Shown: positions 4,886 to 21,312 of the stretch, piece by piece
Position numbering within the stretch: position 1 is the stretch's first letter
Layout: each line of letters begins with the position of its first letter
Assembly: GCA_034435115.1 (NCBI GenBank)
Contig: DAOTXZ010000028.1
Span: 1 to 49,927 of the forward strand
Direction of reading: 5' to 3'
From: Dehalococcoidia bacterium
Lineage (GTDB): Bacteria > Chloroflexota > Dehalococcoidia > E44-bin15 > DAOWNJ01
DNA length: 49,927 nt
Notes under the pieces: generated by a model
Seen by the model: the letters and a program-made list of their open reading frames with translations, nothing else
What the model was told of the DNA's origin: nothing
Database searches by the model: none
Made by a program: the position numbers and the translations under genes

Positions 4886-5374
4886 TTGAAAACACTGGTT
4901 CTGGGACTGGGGAATCCGATTCTTAGCGACGACAGCGTGGGGCTTCGCATTGCTGAGGAGCTTAAAACCCTCTACAATGAGCAGGAAGTGACGGTGATGG
5001 CCACCGACATCGCCGGACTCGGCCTCCTCGACTTCATGCTGGGCTACGACAAGGTGATCATCATTGATTCCATTCAGACCAAAAAGGGCAGGGTTGGACA
5101 GGTCTATCGCCTAGATGCCCAGGACTTTGCCACCACCCGACACGCTGCCTCCCCCCACGATGTGAACCTCGCTACCGCCTTGGAACTGGGAAAGAGGCTT
5201 GGGCTCGCCATACCACAGGAGATAGTCATCTTTGCCATTGAGGCTCAAGATGTGACCACCTTCAGCGAGAGCCTGACCCCTGAGGTGGAACAGGCAATTC
5301 CCAAGGCCGTTCAGATAGTGGCCAGGGAGCTGGACGGCCGAGGGGTGAAGGGGAAAAACGACAAACAGATATAG
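4886..5374 (+). CDS. Hydrogenase maturation endopeptidase (HycI/FrhD/HoxW family)
   Basis: MKTLVLGLGNPILSDDSVG N-terminus and an H..D motif typical of the family. TTG start. It sits directly after the large subunit. Confidence 0.8.
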   Translation: MKTLVLGLGNPILSDDSVGLRIAEELKTLYNEQEVTVMATDIAGLGLLDFMLGYDKVIIIDSIQTKKGRVGQVYRLDAQDFATTRHAASPHDVNLATALELGKRLGLAIPQEIVIFAIEAQDVTTFSESLTPEVEQAIPKAVQIVARELDGRGVKGKNDKQI

Positions 5375-5414
5375 AGACACCAGGTCAGGCAATACAGCCT
5401 AGCCTGGTGTCTCT
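5373..5414. terminator. Bidirectional hairpin between convergent operons
   Basis: AGAGACACCAGG (5373-5384) pairs perfectly with CCTGGTGTCTCT (5403-5414), giving a 12-bp stem. It lies between the plus-strand gene ending at 5374 and the minus-strand gene ending at 5430. Confidence 0.6.
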
Positions 5415-5429
5415 GCGCCCAAACGGGGT

Positions 5430-6437
5430 CTATTGTGCTTTGGCTCGAGCCCGCTCCTCTTTCTTCCGTAAAGCCTCTCGTCTCACAGCAAGCTTAGCCT
5501 GTCTCCTGTCCAGCTCATCCTGCATTCCCTGACCGAACTCACAGATGGCGCACTGGAAGAGTCTGACGCAGAGCCTGTAGGAGACATCTCCGGTCAGGGC
5601 ATAGCGGCAGAGTCTCTGGTTGCCGGCTAACCCCTTGCGCCTCTCCAGCGCCTCGGTGAGCTCGGGTGTCTCCCCGGCTGCCGTCTGTTCTTGCATCATC
5701 TGGTCGAACTCGCAGGTGAGGCAGTCGTAGTTCCTGGTGCAGGCGCGATAGCCGACCACGCCGAGCTTCATCCAGACACAGGGCTTTATCGCCTCCTCAA
5801 CCAAGGCCTCACCCTCAACCTTGGGCTTCGCTGCCTCTTGCCTTGCCCGGTGGAGCAACACTCGAGCCTCGATGTTGCCCGGAGCCACACCCAGAACAGC
5901 CTCAAACTCCCTCACCGCCTCACCAAAGTGCCCCGCTTTTAGCTGCTCTTTGCCCCGCTCGAGATGGGCTGGCACCTCAGTCTCGGTTATGGTGATGACC
6001 TCTTCAACCCCAACCTCAACCCCCTCAGCTACAGTCTCCTCAACAGCAGCCTTCGGTCTTATCTCCACCTGCACCGGACCCAGGGTCTGCCTGATCAATC
6101 TCTCCAGGGCATCAAGGTCGAAGGGCTTGGGCAGATAATCGATGGCCCCGAGTTTCATTGCCTCCACCGCTGTTTCCACCGACGGATAAGCGGTGATGAT
6201 GACCCCCTTGAGCCCTGGCTGTCGCTTCCTCGCCTCCCGCAGCACCTCAAGCCCATCTTTTCCTGGTAACCTGAGGTCGAGAACCGCAATACTGAAGGCC
6301 CGCTCAGCAACCATCTTAAGCGCCTCTTCTCCATCCTCGGCAGTAGCTACCTCATAGCCGCTGTCAACTAGCCAGTCCCTGAGTGACTCACGCATAATTG
6401 CCTCGTCTTCCACTATCAGTAAAGGTCGTTGCCTCAT
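5430..6437 (-). CDS. Response-regulator receiver protein with a TPR-like linker and a duplicated 4-Cys C-terminal module
   Basis: Receiver motifs are present (LLIVEDE, VLDLRLPGKDG, ITAY, KP). The C-terminus has two repeats of C-x12/13-C-x5-C-x2-CEF. ATG 6437 has a GGGGGTG ribosome-binding site. The ORF-track start at 6479 lies upstream of the predicted transcription start. Confidence 0.8.
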   Translation of the reverse strand: MRQRPLLIVEDEAIMRESLRDWLVDSGYEVATAEDGEEALKMVAERAFSIAVLDLRLPGKDGLEVLREARKRQPGLKGVIITAYPSVETAVEAMKLGAIDYLPKPFDLDALERLIRQTLGPVQVEIRPKAAVEETVAEGVEVGVEEVITITETEVPAHLERGKEQLKAGHFGEAVREFEAVLGVAPGNIEARVLLHRARQEAAKPKVEGEALVEEAIKPCVWMKLGVVGYRACTRNYDCLTCEFDQMMQEQTAAGETPELTEALERRKGLAGNQRLCRYALTGDVSYRLCVRLFQCAICEFGQGMQDELDRRQAKLAVRREALRKKEERARAKAQ

Positions 6438-6486
6438 TTTTGTCACCCCCTTCTTTAGTTCTTTTACCGCTTCCGCCATCTATATT

Positions 6487-6502
6487 TGCAATTTTCTTGC
6501 CA
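6487..6502 (-). promoter_or_regulatory. Sigma-54 type -24/-12 promoter
   Basis: The minus strand reads TGGCAA-GAAAA-TTGCA, against the consensus TGGCAC-N5-TTGCW. The GG to GC spacing is correct. It lies about 50 nt upstream of ATG 6437. Confidence 0.6.
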
Positions 6503-6511
6503 AAATAAGAA

Positions 6512-6536
6512 GGTCATCCCAAAGTTTGGGATGACC
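6512..6536 (-). terminator. Hairpin terminator after the sigma-54/kinase/activator operon
   Basis: Perfect palindrome GGTCATCCCAAA-N-TTTGGGATGACC, followed on the minus strand by TTCTTATTTT. It is located 42 nt after the stop of the 6578-7939 gene. Confidence 0.5.
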
Positions 6537-6577
6537 CAGTTGGTCAGCTTGGTTGTCAGACGGTGTAAAACTATCAG

Positions 6578-7939
6578 TCAGTTGGTGTCTATTCTCTTTA
6601 CATCCAGCCCATATTTCTTTATTTTGTTATAGAGTGTCATCCGCGTAATCCCCAAGACCCTGGCAGCCTTGCTATAATTCCGCCTGGTTTCAGCGAGGAC
6701 GCTTAAGATATGGTCCTTTTCCACCTCCTCAAGGCTCTTCCCCGCCGAAGCCTGACGAGGCGAGGGCAGGTTTTGCAGAGATAAATCGGCGGCTGTAATC
6801 GTGCTATTCTTCGCCAGAACCACTGCCCTTTCGATGGCATTTTCCAGCTCCCGAACATTGCCCGGCCACTCATATTTCATGAGAAAGTCCATAGCATCGG
6901 GGGAAAATGTGGTGACCACTTTTTGATTTTCCAACGCAAACTTGTTCAAGAAATGTTGGGCTAAGAGGGGAATATCCTCCACCCTCTCCCTTAGCGGAGG
7001 CAATTGAATAGTAACCACATTCAGTCGGTAATAGAGGTCATCGCGGAATTCGCCTCTCCTCACTGCCTCCTTTAGATCCTTATTGGTGGCTGAGATGAGG
7101 CGCACATCGCTCTTAATTGTCTGAGTGCCACCGACCCTGGTGAACTCTCTCTCCTCGAGCACCCGCAGCAGATGAACCTGAACATTGGCGCTAATCTCCC
7201 CGATTTCATCCAAAAAGAGGGTCCCTTTGTGGGCCAGCTCAAATCTTCCTTTCCTTTGCGCTATGGCACCGGTGAAAGAGCCCTTTTCATGGCCAAATAG
7301 CTCGCTTTCCAGGAGGCTCTCAGGCAGGGCAGCACAGCTTACGGCGACAAACGGTTTATCCCGGCGGGGGCTCAAGTTATGGATGGCCCGAGCTACCAGC
7401 TCCTTACCGGTGCCGCTTTCGCCAGTGATCAGAACTGTAGCGTTGGTAGGAGCCACTGTCGTGACCACCTCGAATATCCGCTGCATTTTATGGCTCTTGG
7501 CAATGATATTCTCAAAGCGATAGCGCTCTTCTAACCGTTGGCGCAGGGCGAGGTTTTCTTCGATCAGCCCCTGATGCTCTACCAACTTCTTGATGAGCAA
7601 TTCCACCCGCTCCGGGCAAAATGGCTTCTCGATATAATCATAGGCCCCCTCTTTCATGGCAGCGATAGCCGTGGGTATGCTCCCATAGGCGGTGATGATG
7701 ATTACCTCAGTGCCGGGAAACATCTCTTTGACCCTCTTCATCAACTCGATGCCATCCATCCCCGGCATCACCAGGTCGGCGATAACGATCCCTATCCTCT
7801 CCTTATTGACAATCTCCATGGCCTGGGAGCCATCCCCAGCGGCAAACACTTGATAGCCGGCATTGTTGAGCCAGTCCACCAACGATTCGCGGACAACGGC
7901 CTCATCATCGACGACAAGGATTTTAGCCTTCCTATTCAC
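6578..7939 (-). CDS. Sigma-54-dependent response regulator (NtrC-family enhancer-binding protein)
   Basis: Receiver domain, AAA+ Walker A GESGTGKE, the GSFTGA loop (a GAFTGA variant), Walker B LFLDEIGE, and a C-terminal Fis-type HTH (AARVLGITRMTLYNKIKKYGL). Confidence 0.92.
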   Translation of the reverse strand: MNRKAKILVVDDEAVVRESLVDWLNNAGYQVFAAGDGSQAMEIVNKERIGIVIADLVMPGMDGIELMKRVKEMFPGTEVIIITAYGSIPTAIAAMKEGAYDYIEKPFCPERVELLIKKLVEHQGLIEENLALRQRLEERYRFENIIAKSHKMQRIFEVVTTVAPTNATVLITGESGTGKELVARAIHNLSPRRDKPFVAVSCAALPESLLESELFGHEKGSFTGAIAQRKGRFELAHKGTLFLDEIGEISANVQVHLLRVLEEREFTRVGGTQTIKSDVRLISATNKDLKEAVRRGEFRDDLYYRLNVVTIQLPPLRERVEDIPLLAQHFLNKFALENQKVVTTFSPDAMDFLMKYEWPGNVRELENAIERAVVLAKNSTITAADLSLQNLPSPRQASAGKSLEEVEKDHILSVLAETRRNYSKAARVLGITRMTLYNKIKKYGLDVKRIDTN

Positions 7940-9869
7940 GCCCGACCCTCAAATAGACACTAAACGTCGTTCCCTTTCCCACCTCGCTTTGAACCTCGAT
8001 TCTTCCTTTGTGTCGCTCGATAATGCCGTGAGTCACAGCCAGCCCCAAGCCGACACCCTTCCCCTTCTCCTTGGTGGTGAAAAAGGGGGTAAACAGCTTG
8101 CGCAGGTTCTCCTTGGAGATGCCACAGCCTGTATCCTGAACATCGACCCTGAGCTGACCATCACCAACAAGCCTGGTGCGAATGGTCAACTCCCCTCCCT
8201 GTGGCATTGCCTGAATGGCATTCAATATGAGATTGGTGAATACCTGTTGTAGCTGGTCGAAATCAGCGGTGATCAGTGGCAGCGACGGGCTTAGCTCCTT
8301 TATCACCTTAACGCCCTGCATCTGGGCCTGATGAGCTACTAGGGATATGGCTTTTTCTATAGCCTGATTGACATCCGTCTCCCTTAAAAGTGGCTCTGAT
8401 TGCCTGGCGAAATCCAGAAGATTGCGGATTACCTTCGAACTATGGCTGATCTCAGCCTCTATCTTCGAGAGGTAGCGCAGGGCCTCTTCCTTTGTCAGGG
8501 TGTCGCCCTCGGTCTTTTTCATCAATAATTTGGTGTAGACCAAGACACCGGCTAAAGGATTATTAATTTCGTGGGCAATGGCAGCAGCCATCTGGCCCAG
8601 CGAGGTCAGCTTCTCCGCTTGAATAAGCTCCTCTTGAGCAGTCTGTAACCGTTGAATCAGGTAGGGCCAGCACATCTCACTTTCAGCCAAGCCCTGACAG
8701 ACAGCAATGGCCAACTCCCGGCAAGAGGAATAGCCGCAAGCGCCGCAATTAAGCTGGTCTTCAGGGGCTGCCTTTTTGATATGGGCTAAGGCGCGGCTGA
8801 TTTCCTCTTCGCGCGGGGCATCGAGCGCCGTGAATCGATTGGTGAACCTCCGACTCAGGTCAAGGTCAGCATATTCCTTGGCGTCTCTCTCTGCTTGAGC
8901 AGGATCAGCCTCCCTCAGCGCATAATCGACGATGAGCTCCCTCCGTCCGCTAATTGATAAGTCGTTATAAATCGCTGGCCCACCAACGCAACCTTCGCAG
9001 AAGAAAAGATCCAGGAATCTAGTCCTGATCTTGCCCTTGGCGAAGTCTCGAAGGCACTTGACCACGCGCTCCTTGCCCTCACCGATGACGATATCGTTTG
9101 ACGAGATGTCGCTGGTGAGCCCGGCCACTTTGAGTAAACCCCCTGGAATAGCGTACAGGCGCCCAAGGTGCGACTTGGGGCCAGCGAATTGCCCCTCCTC
9201 CTCATGACCAGGGTCGATCCCTCTGGCAGCGAGCATTTCCTTAAGTTCAGCAAAGGTCAACACAGCATCAATGACACCGGCAACCTTTTCGTCCACCCTC
9301 TCAACTTTCTTGGCGACACAGGGGCCAATGAAGACTACCTTGGCCCTGGGATTATACCGCCACTTAATCAACCGGCCCATCGCTACCATGGGCGAAACGA
9401 GAGGCACCAGGTTGCCGATTAGCTGGGGATAGAATTTTTCAATGACCAAGACGACAGCAGGGCAGGTGGAGGAGATGATAGGCTTATCCCCATTTTGCTC
9501 CATCAGTCGCTGATATTCTCGGGCCACCAGTTCGGCACCAAAGGCAACCTCCATCACCTCGCTGAACCCCAGTTTCTCGAGGGCAGTCGCCATCTGCCGC
9601 GGGCGCACCTCAGCCCAGGCGGCAGGGAACGAGGAAGACAGGATGGCAATTACTGGATATTGCCCCAAGAGCTGCCAAACGATGCCAACATCATTCTCCA
9701 CTTGCTTGGCGCCGACGGCGCAGACCCGAACACAGGTGCCACAGGCAATGCAGCGCTCCTTCATCACCTCAGCCAGCCCATCCCTGACCCTGATGGCCTT
9801 CACCGGGCAACTGCGGATGCAGGCATAGCACCGTTTACATTTGTCTCGCGACGTGAACACAATGCTCAT
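7932..9869 (-). CDS. Sensor histidine kinase with N-terminal 2x[4Fe-4S] ferredoxin, an [FeFe]-hydrogenase-like domain and an RnfB-type Fe-S domain
   Basis: Ferredoxin motifs CKRCYACIRSCP and CIACGTCVRVC. H-cluster-like motifs SSTCPAV, GPCVAKKVE and FCEGCVGGP. Also CGACGYSSC..C, then HisKA (AHEINNPL) and HATPase (DTGCGI, GKGVGLGL). ATG 9869 overlaps the upstream stop as ATGA. Confidence 0.87.
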   Translation of the reverse strand: MSIVFTSRDKCKRCYACIRSCPVKAIRVRDGLAEVMKERCIACGTCVRVCAVGAKQVENDVGIVWQLLGQYPVIAILSSSFPAAWAEVRPRQMATALEKLGFSEVMEVAFGAELVAREYQRLMEQNGDKPIISSTCPAVVLVIEKFYPQLIGNLVPLVSPMVAMGRLIKWRYNPRAKVVFIGPCVAKKVERVDEKVAGVIDAVLTFAELKEMLAARGIDPGHEEEGQFAGPKSHLGRLYAIPGGLLKVAGLTSDISSNDIVIGEGKERVVKCLRDFAKGKIRTRFLDLFFCEGCVGGPAIYNDLSISGRRELIVDYALREADPAQAERDAKEYADLDLSRRFTNRFTALDAPREEEISRALAHIKKAAPEDQLNCGACGYSSCRELAIAVCQGLAESEMCWPYLIQRLQTAQEELIQAEKLTSLGQMAAAIAHEINNPLAGVLVYTKLLMKKTEGDTLTKEEALRYLSKIEAEISHSSKVIRNLLDFARQSEPLLRETDVNQAIEKAISLVAHQAQMQGVKVIKELSPSLPLITADFDQLQQVFTNLILNAIQAMPQGGELTIRTRLVGDGQLRVDVQDTGCGISKENLRKLFTPFFTTKEKGKGVGLGLAVTHGIIERHKGRIEVQSEVGKGTTFSVYLRVGRE

Positions 9870-11084: not shown

Positions 11085-11294
11085 CTAACCGCGCTTTTTG
11101 GCCCCTAGCCACAAGTTCGCGCTCCTCTCCGGCAGGCTCAGCCCCCAGCCCCGCCCCAGCTCGCTTCTCCCGGCCGACCCTAGTCCTTGGGGGCGCGTTG
11201 CCAAGACTACCCCGCCGACAATGGCAAACCCAATTGCAGCGGGGATGCCGATGTAAATAACCAAAACTAATAGAATCACTAGAGCGCTTCCCAT
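11085..11294 (-). CDS. Hypothetical small membrane protein
   Basis: Strong AAGGAGGAGG ribosome-binding site 6 nt upstream of the ATG. The N-terminal ~30 residues are hydrophobic (ALVILLVLVIYIGIPAAIGFAIVGGVVLA). The C-terminal half is low-complexity, so confidence is low. Confidence 0.35.
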   Translation of the reverse strand: MGSALVILLVLVIYIGIPAAIGFAIVGGVVLATRPQGLGSAGRSELGRGWGLSLPERSANLWLGAKKRG

Positions 11295-11487
11295 CGGCTA
11301 CCTCCTCCTTCTGAGCATAGCTTACCATCCACGATGTATGAACACATCCGCTGGCCAGCCTATGCTCCGGCGAGCAATAAGCCTAAAAAGCTTTGTTGGT
11401 TTCCTAGGGATTTGTGCGGGGTGACAATACAGAGGAGTAGGTCAACTGCCCTAGAAGGGATAAGTATCTTCGCTTAAAGGGGAAACA

Positions 11488-11561
11488 CGACCCCGAGGGG
11501 ATTCGAACCCCCGATCTCCACCGTGACAGGGTGGCATGTTAGTCCGCTACACTACGGGGCC
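11488..11561 (-). tRNA. tRNA-Asp (GTC)
   Basis: The minus strand folds by hand into a cloverleaf. Acceptor stem GGCCCCG/CGGGGTC, anticodon arm CCACC-CTGTCAC-GGTGG, T-arm GGGGGTTCGAATCCCC, discriminator G. No CCA is encoded. Confidence 0.9.
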
Positions 11562-11611
11562 AGAGATAAACCACCTTGCTCATTCTATCAAGAGCCTGCT
11601 ATGTTGTCAAG

Positions 11612-21202: not shown

Positions 21203-21218
21203 TGGCAGGCTGCTTGCT
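21203..21218 (+). promoter_or_regulatory. Sigma-54 type -24/-12 promoter candidate
   Basis: TGGCAG-GCTGC-TTGCT with correct GG/GC spacing. It lies 120 nt upstream of the DUF134 gene, in an intergenic region. Confidence 0.45.
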
Positions 21219-21263
21219 CACAACGGCCTCAGTAGAACTGAGAATAAGCAACGAAAAACCCTC

Positions 21264-21292
21264 TTGACTGTTTGTTGACCAAGTGTTATCAT
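21264..21292 (+). promoter_or_regulatory. Sigma-70 type promoter candidate
   Basis: TTGACT, a 17-nt spacer, then TATCAT, about 45 nt upstream of ATG 21338. Confidence 0.5.
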
Positions 21293-21298
21293 AAATTA

Positions 21299-21312
21299 TG
21301 AGCATATGCTCA
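21299..21312. promoter_or_regulatory. Perfect 14-bp palindrome, candidate operator
   Basis: TGAGCATATGCTCA sits immediately after the -10 element, at the expected transcription start. It lies upstream of a gene for a predicted DNA-binding protein. Confidence 0.5.

Follow-up and report, generated by a model that had tools for sequence, protein, structure and literature searches.

The question raised by this locus is how a gene for a receiver/Cys-rich protein, situated directly after the genes of a sigma-54 cassette, is switched on, and whether the -24/-12-like element in front of it is a genuine sigma-54 promoter. The locus lies in a window of 49,927 nt (the whole stretch of DNA that was analysed, from contig DAOTXZ010000028.1), which belongs to a 1.18-Mb Dehalococcoidia genome assembled in 115 contigs. 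Judging from its sequence and that of its relatives, we give a probability of about 0.85 to the reading in which the element at 6503-6487 is a genuine sigma-54 promoter, through which a self-contained circuit of four parts would deliver its output. The features concerned are collected in Table 1.

Table 1. Genes and signals of the cassette and of its predicted target (positions in the window)
Feature	Position	Strand	Basis or remark
Compact divergent sigma-54 (putative), 370 aa	9866..10978	minus	Pfam Sigma54_DBD 2.5e-25
Histidine kinase with [FeFe]-hydrogenase-like Fe-S sensor module	7932..9869	minus	Pfam Fe_hyd_lg_C 2e-50, Fer4, HisKA, HATPase_c
NtrC/AtoC-type enhancer-binding protein: receiver, AAA+ sigma-54 interaction domain, Fis-type HTH	6578..7939	minus	Pfam Sigma54_activat 5e-75, HTH_8
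Candidate enhancer (UAS), 39-bp dyad TGTAAAGAGAATAGACA-CCAAC-TGACTGATAGTTTTACA	6564..6602	minus	conserved span, genome-unique, phased
Intrinsic terminator hairpin of the cassette operon	6511..6537	minus	12 pairs, -23.1 kcal/mol, z = -3.7
Predicted sigma-54 (-24/-12) promoter TTGGCAAGAAAATTGCA	6487..6503	minus	GG 6501-6500, GC 6489-6488
Predicted +1, G	6476	minus	placed by the geometry typical of sigma-54, 12 nt past the C of the -12 GC
Predicted 5' leader, 39 nt, with ribosome-binding site AAGGGGGTG (6452-6444)	6438..6476	minus	
Target gene, 335 aa: receiver, TPR-like helical pair, two C-x12/13-C-x5-C-x2-CEF repeats	5430..6437	minus	Pfam Response_reg 6e-29
Hairpin, 12-bp stem, between the convergent receiver/Cys-rich and hydrogenase maturation protease genes	5373..5414		AGAGACACCAGG...CCTGGTGTCTCT, then T-rich tail

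The operon upstream of the element would comprise a compact sigma-54, a kinase with a hydrogenase-like module and one NtrC-type activator, and would end at the terminator at 6537-6511. A profile search of the whole genome found a single gene with a Sigma54_DBD domain, the one in the cassette. Its product scores 106 bits against TIGR02395, below the cut-off of 277 bits, and Pfam recognised Sigma54_DBD alone in it, i.e. neither region I nor the core-binding domain. Because of this divergence, we infer rather than assert that the cassette protein is a true sigma-54; its HTH and RpoN box (SRRSVAKLR versus ARRTVAKYR) align with the Aquifex and Klebsiella sigma-54 structures. The Fe_hyd_lg_C, HisKA and HATPase_c domains are united in one protein, whose gene adjoins that of the activator. 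The best NCBIfam match of the activator is AtoC, below the cut-off of that family, and its loop reads GSFTGA (GSFTGA or GAFTGA in 19 orthologues). It is the one true Sigma54_activat protein of the genome, the five other matches being generic AAA+ proteins near the cut-off. A stretch of 5.5 kb accommodates the whole set, from the genes for sigma factor, kinase and activator through the candidate enhancer and the promoter to the predicted +1 and the target. Orthologous cassettes were gathered from relatives, and some 20 loci show the same gene order (sigma-54, kinase, activator, receiver/Cys-rich gene). Upstream of the cassette, a tRNA-Asp (GTC) gene region (11487-11610, minus strand) carries a near-consensus sigma-70 promoter, TTGACA-17-TAGAAT with a TG; a small hydrophobic ORF (11085-11294) with the ribosome-binding site GGAGGAGG lies between the tRNA and the sigma-54 gene.

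The sequence-only reading had described a near-consensus -24/-12 motif at 6487-6502, one mismatch from consensus and directly preceded by a hairpin, and both points were borne out. The minus strand from 6502 to 6487 reads TGGCAAGAAAATTGCA, in which 15/16 positions fit TGGCAC-N5-TTGCW with the exact GG-N10-GC spacing, and the 12-pair hairpin at 6537-6511 is followed by TCTTATTTT, a T-tract that runs into the -24 element. The promoter is intergenic and correctly oriented, 50 nt upstream of ATG 6437 and within a spacer of 140 nt. The motif by itself is not significant, as 5 matches with at most 1 mismatch were counted in the window against 1.8 expected. Its position is significant, however: the whole genome holds 8 matches (at most 1 mismatch, GG and GC intact), and about 5e-4 are expected in a 140-nt spacer in the right orientation. 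In itself this is an element of an ordinary kind.

The insignificance of the bare motif is one of three observations that could suit a different explanation, namely that the element is no promoter at all but another protein's operator or a part of the terminator, the target being expressed by read-through or from an unrecognised sigma-70-type promoter; the other two are that the terminator T-tract abuts the motif and that TTGGCA resembles a -35 hexamer. The resemblance was followed up, and TTGGCA was rejected as a sigma-70 -35 element because no -10 element is found at 16-18 nt, the usable distance; a sigma-70 scan of the activator-target spacer returned no promoter on the minus strand. An operator is at odds with the motif not being palindromic, and with its invariant bases being exactly GG and GC at sigma-54 spacing. 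Read-through is opposed by the terminator, which is strongly conserved, with compensatory changes in 12/13 pairs across 10 loci; a conserved terminator between activator and promoter implies that the target gene is insulated from transcription of the cassette. We regard this explanation as very improbable.

Comparison with relatives points the same way. The core TTGGC-N5-AATTGC is invariant in 16/16 aligned orthologous sites between the activator and receiver genes, and the flanks vary (the orthologous promoter of L144, for instance, reads TGGCACGAAAATTGCG). A -24/-12 match (TGGC-N7-TTGC) is also present in the same spacer in G260 and in L171-L176; the two bases preceding TTGC vary in L171 and, in L172, at the upstream one of its two copies. 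Every orthologous cassette whose sequence continues past the activator gene carries the element. Relative to the terminator, the promoter is shifted away by about 55 nt in four loci (L039, L042, L145 and L175), so its conservation is not a by-product of the T-tract, which again speaks against the motif being a terminator part. The motif is absent from L043, a paralogous locus whose receiver gene is not preceded by a cassette. Every property of a sigma-54 promoter that can be checked in a sequence was found in the element at 6503-6487, and it is very probably a real one.

Some of the related loci differ in layout. Tandem copies of the -24/-12 promoter occur in L149 (G091:C6; 5105 and 5161) and in L172 (6336 and 6402), 56-66 nt apart and each followed by its own +1-like AAAG(G)GTG box. 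The four loci with the displaced promoter, which lies about 155 nt from the dyad described below, may descend from such a duplication in which the proximal copy decayed. In L171 (46-2789; Dehalococcoidales) the activator gene starts about 340 nt after the sigma-54 gene with no hydrogenase-like kinase between them; promoter and receiver/Cys-rich gene are retained there. The most divergent cassette, L150 (G381:C52, ~5170-5720), has about 550 nt of extra, non-homologous DNA between the activator stop codon and the promoter, and its dyad is degenerate.

The promoter also bears on where the target gene begins. Sigma-54 transcription usually starts about 12 nt downstream of the GC, which would place +1 at G6476; this column is G in 15/16 sites, and the -3 column is A in 15/16. 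The ATG given by the ORF track (6479-6477) is only 9 nt past the C of the -12 GC (6488) and has no Shine-Dalgarno sequence, while ATG 6437 has AAGGGGGTG in front of it, 6 nt away. In an alignment of nine orthologous spacers, this Shine-Dalgarno sequence and ATG 6437 coincide with the AGGAGG-N-ATGAAACC starts of all orthologues; the stretch from promoter to start varies among them in length, sequence, frame and presence of an upstream in-frame ATG. The 335-aa reading from 6437 is therefore supported, both by the orthologue alignment and by ATG 6479 lying before the predicted +1 and lacking a Shine-Dalgarno sequence. The earlier proposals that transcription starts downstream of ATG 6479 and that translation starts at ATG 6437 thus agree with the predicted geometry and with the orthologous starts, and the annotated start of the target gene is corrected by 14 codons. 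An Rfam search of leader and spacer assigned no family to the leader and gave one chance hairpin match only.

At the other end of the gene, the hairpin at 5373-5414 was read directly from the sequence (an Rfam hairpin match there is weak and attributable to chance) and is likely a bidirectional terminator. Situated after the target gene, it implies a monocistronic sigma-54 transcript of about 1.1 kb.

How many promoters would such a sigma factor serve? A Sigma54_DBD gene was detected in 3/36 genomes of the order and in 12/401 sampled genomes of the class. The strict motif TTGGCVRRAWAATTGC was matched, once per genome, in 4/36 genomes of the order and 8/401 of the class. Three of the 4 order-level matches and 4 of the 8 class-level ones are on the contig of the cassette, where they follow the sigma-54 gene by 2.8-3.9 kb on the same strand; the remainder are in genomes without sigma-54, in a number comparable to that obtained with a reversed-pattern control (2). 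Where a cassette genome escaped the strict pattern, a closely related variant occupies the corresponding position. A search of 10 cassette-bearing genomes, among them one complete chromosome, with the loose core TTGGC-N5-AATTGC recovered the cassette site every time; the 10 additional matches in those genomes all sit inside long ORFs. The genome-wide search for sigma-54 promoters in the present genome, run with motif patterns, gave the lineage consensus TTGGCAAGAAAATTGCA once; the runner-up, with 3 mismatches, falls within coding sequence. That the motif occurs in this genome only beside the sigma-54 gene is a further point against its being anything other than a promoter.

Several candidates outside the cassette were discarded. 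Those on C44, C46, C90, C29, C109, C19, C47 and other contigs are inside ORFs or have no plausible downstream gene. An isolated intergenic TTGGCAAAATAATTGC in G008, a genome without a sigma-54 gene, was treated as chance because the control rate is 2 in 401 genomes. The site (L120, G008:C12, 16133-16148) precedes a Pro/Thr-rich, secreted-looking ORF and may be either chance or a relic. The intergenic TGGCAGGCTGCTTGCT at 21203 (plus strand) was rejected as a second conserved target because, in cassette-bearing genomes, neither of the two orthologous upstream regions contains it.

That last match belongs to an alternative in which the promoter is real but one of several, the others being too divergent or off the contig and serving operons such as the neighbouring [NiFe]-hydrogenase/HdrA-like one or that of the Fe-S cluster at 21.3 kb. 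Cassette and hydrogenase genes are linked in many loci, and the neighbouring hydrogenase operon, which is convergent, is entered by the contig inside the operon, so that its promoter lies beyond the contig start and is not visible. However, no second -24/-12 site with at most 2 mismatches was conserved in seven 9-13-kb loci, the extra core matches in the 10 genomes are all coding, and the dyad described below is unique in the genome. The 21203 match is not only missing from both orthologous regions, but these carry sigma-70-type promoters instead; L124 also keeps the ATGAGCATATGCTCA operator. We consider a wider regulon of this kind rather unlikely. As the extra matches are intragenic, implausible or not conserved, there is one detectable target within the limits of fragmented assemblies; further targets may exist, given an assembly in 115 contigs and a hydrogenase operon whose promoter is out of view. 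As regards the 21203-21300 region itself (plus strand), TGGCAGGCTGCTTGCT lies upstream of a DUF134-type gene whose operon has a sigma-70-type promoter, TTGACT-17-TATCAT, and the palindrome ATGAGCATATGCTCA found there is also upstream of the L124 orthologue.

The proposal that the receiver/Cys-rich gene is a direct target of the neighbouring sigma-54/activator pair thus gains support from four sides: the conserved promoter, the presence of a sole sigma-54 and a sole activator, the intervening terminator and the motif-less L043. It remains to be asked from where the activator would act. Upstream activator sequences usually lie 80-150 bp upstream, and the candidate found here, a 39-bp dyad centred about 107 nt before +1, can be viewed as a pair of TGT/TGA-N11-ACA sites at a distance of 22 bp. 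It spans the last codons of the activator gene, its stop codon (6580-6578) and 14 non-coding bases. An element of 38-40 bp with the same arms is present in 16/20 loci scanned, though the C-terminal residues and the stop position differ, and it is a near-perfect palindrome in G260 and L173. The pattern TGTAAA-N26-28-TTTACA has one occurrence in the genome, and 20 shuffles gave 1 match in total. Measured from the centre of the dyad, the -24 element lies at distances that group around 82, 92, 103, 114, 155 and 169 bp. A face-of-helix spacing is expected for an enhancer that loops to sigma-54 polymerase, and the Rayleigh R indeed peaks at about 0.6 for periods of 10.5-10.75 bp (nominal P ~ 0.001); this phasing is suggestive only, since the loci are related and non-independent and several periods were scanned.

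Could the promoter be real and sigma-54 dependent without the dyad being its enhancer? The activator would then act from solution or from another site, as some activators, e.g. Borrelia Rrp2, do without a defined enhancer, and the dyad would be kept for the activator's C-terminal peptide, for another regulator or for feedback by the receiver/Cys-rich protein. Half of the dyad is coding sequence, so that part of its conservation could be at the protein level; moreover, four loci (L041, L150, L171 and L176) keep the promoter with the dyad degenerate or missing, and in L150 the ~550-nt insertion separates activator gene and promoter. Against this, the span of 38-40 bp and both arms persist while stop codon and C-terminal residues shift, the conserved TTTACA arm is non-coding, and third-codon identity in the activator gene reaches 0.81 over the last 12 codons versus 0.65 for the gene mean and at most 0.75 in any other window. 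The uniqueness of the dyad in the genome and distances that peak at the helical repeat are likewise not what this account would lead one to expect. It seems to us improbable, though less so than the absence of a promoter, and we retain the 39-bp dyad as a candidate enhancer.

The predicted target itself has two recognisably different parts. Its receiver has the usual acidic pocket and Lys, is modelled confidently by AlphaFold2 and is 44% identical to the receiver of the activator, from which it follows that the protein is probably a second substrate of the same kinase. The Cys-rich part has a pLDDT below 50 and matches no family in Pfam or NCBIfam; all eight Cys of its two repeats are invariant in 10 orthologues, and the module possibly binds a metal or an Fe-S cluster. 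We suggest that the protein is probably an inducible second-tier output or a phosphate sink. In the orthologues of L040, L044, L173 and L175, a tryptophan-rich C-terminal tail (SWWWSYW...) replaces the basic KKEERAKA tail seen here. In L038 (7170-8702) and in L040/L044 (9540-13020), the target is followed on the same strand by extra receiver genes that stand alone, by a second Cys-rich module and by one more kinase. The sigma-54 transcript may be polycistronic in these loci and feed a larger phosphorelay.

Under our preferred reading, that of a genuine sigma-54 promoter with the dyad as its enhancer, the circuit would work as follows. Sigma-54 RNA polymerase would wait as a closed complex on TTGGCAAGAAAATTGCA; the kinase, whose signal is putatively hydrogen or redox state, would phosphorylate the activator, which would then oligomerise on the 6602-6564 dyad, loop over the terminator DNA and open the promoter with ATP. 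Transcription from about G6476 would yield a monocistronic mRNA with its 39-nt leader, translated from ATG 6437. A bolder version, which we put forward tentatively and at somewhat less than even odds, holds that this sigma-54 is not global but private, in the manner of an ECF factor. It would belong to a patchy, possibly transferable module with its own sensor kinase, a sole activator, an enhancer embedded in the activator stop codon and exactly one promoter, which induces a second phospho-acceptor carrying a new, probably metal- or redox-active Cys-rich module.

Many of these parts have counterparts in NtrB/NtrC-type systems (glnAp2/NtrC, AtoS/AtoC, ZraS/ZraR), which share the -24 GG/-12 GC promoter, a GAFTGA-type activator with receiver, AAA+ domain and Fis-type HTH, an adjacent kinase gene and, about 100 nt upstream, a dyad-symmetric element like the candidate enhancer found here. 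Several traits set the present locus apart from those systems. Its sigma-54 gene lies in the kinase/activator operon and encodes an unusually short (370 aa), divergent protein; a single activator and a single detectable promoter are present in the genome; and the candidate enhancer, which extends over the stop codon of the activator gene, is separated from the promoter by a terminator hairpin. In HoxBC-HoxJ-HoxA of Cupriavidus necator and HupUV-HupT-HupR of Rhodobacter capsulatus, a histidine kinase and an NtrC-family regulator work together with a hydrogenase-like sensor; both systems are linked to hydrogenase genes, and the HoxA-type regulator of C. necator acts at sigma-54 promoters. The cassette resembles HoxJ/HoxA in joining a hydrogenase-like sensor, a histidine kinase and an NtrC-family regulator, H2 sensing being putative. 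It differs in that the sensor is an [FeFe]-type module fused to the kinase instead of a separate [NiFe] regulatory hydrogenase, in having its own sigma-54, and in that the only promoter found drives the receiver/Cys-rich gene and not hydrogenase structural genes.

Another point of comparison is the Rrp2-RpoN-RpoS pathway of Borrelia burgdorferi, in which one sigma-54 and one NtrC-like activator serve a promoter whose product is itself a regulator (PMC3037356, PMC11109971). A minimal sigma-54 regulon as the first tier of a cascade is common to both; however, the Borrelia target is a sigma factor (rpoS) and the genes do not form one cassette with the promoter, whereas here a receiver/Cys-rich protein is the target and the locus has an enhancer-like dyad. 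The sensor module of the cassette kinase is of the kind found in group C/D sensory [FeFe]-hydrogenases (TmHydS, TamHydS), for which sensing is termed 'putative', having been proposed from domain and gene context, and whose characterised members have no defined transcriptional output (PMC8163306). Unlike TmHydS and TamHydS, the module here is fused to a kinase and has activator, sigma factor and target promoter within 5.5 kb. As to sigma-54 in this lineage, we found no literature linking it with Dehalococcoidia beyond the remark of Francke et al. that it occurs in 'some Chloroflexi' (PMC3162934).

The circuit predicted here is an undescribed variant, in which a private sigma-54 appears to be paired with one promoter. 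Sigma-54 is normally a global factor that serves many activators. In this genome it seems to have shrunk to a switch for a single promoter, passed on by descent or by transfer as one module within a class where sigma-54 is rare (12/401). Since all parts lie within 5.5 kb and the layout recurs in about 20 genomes, the circuit could be rebuilt with a reporter and tested with H2 or redox changes; a putative hydrogen- or redox-sensing circuit thereby gains a defined, testable read-out. If the private-module reading is true, a 'sensory' [FeFe]-hydrogenase would for the first time have a circuit that is complete from input to output.
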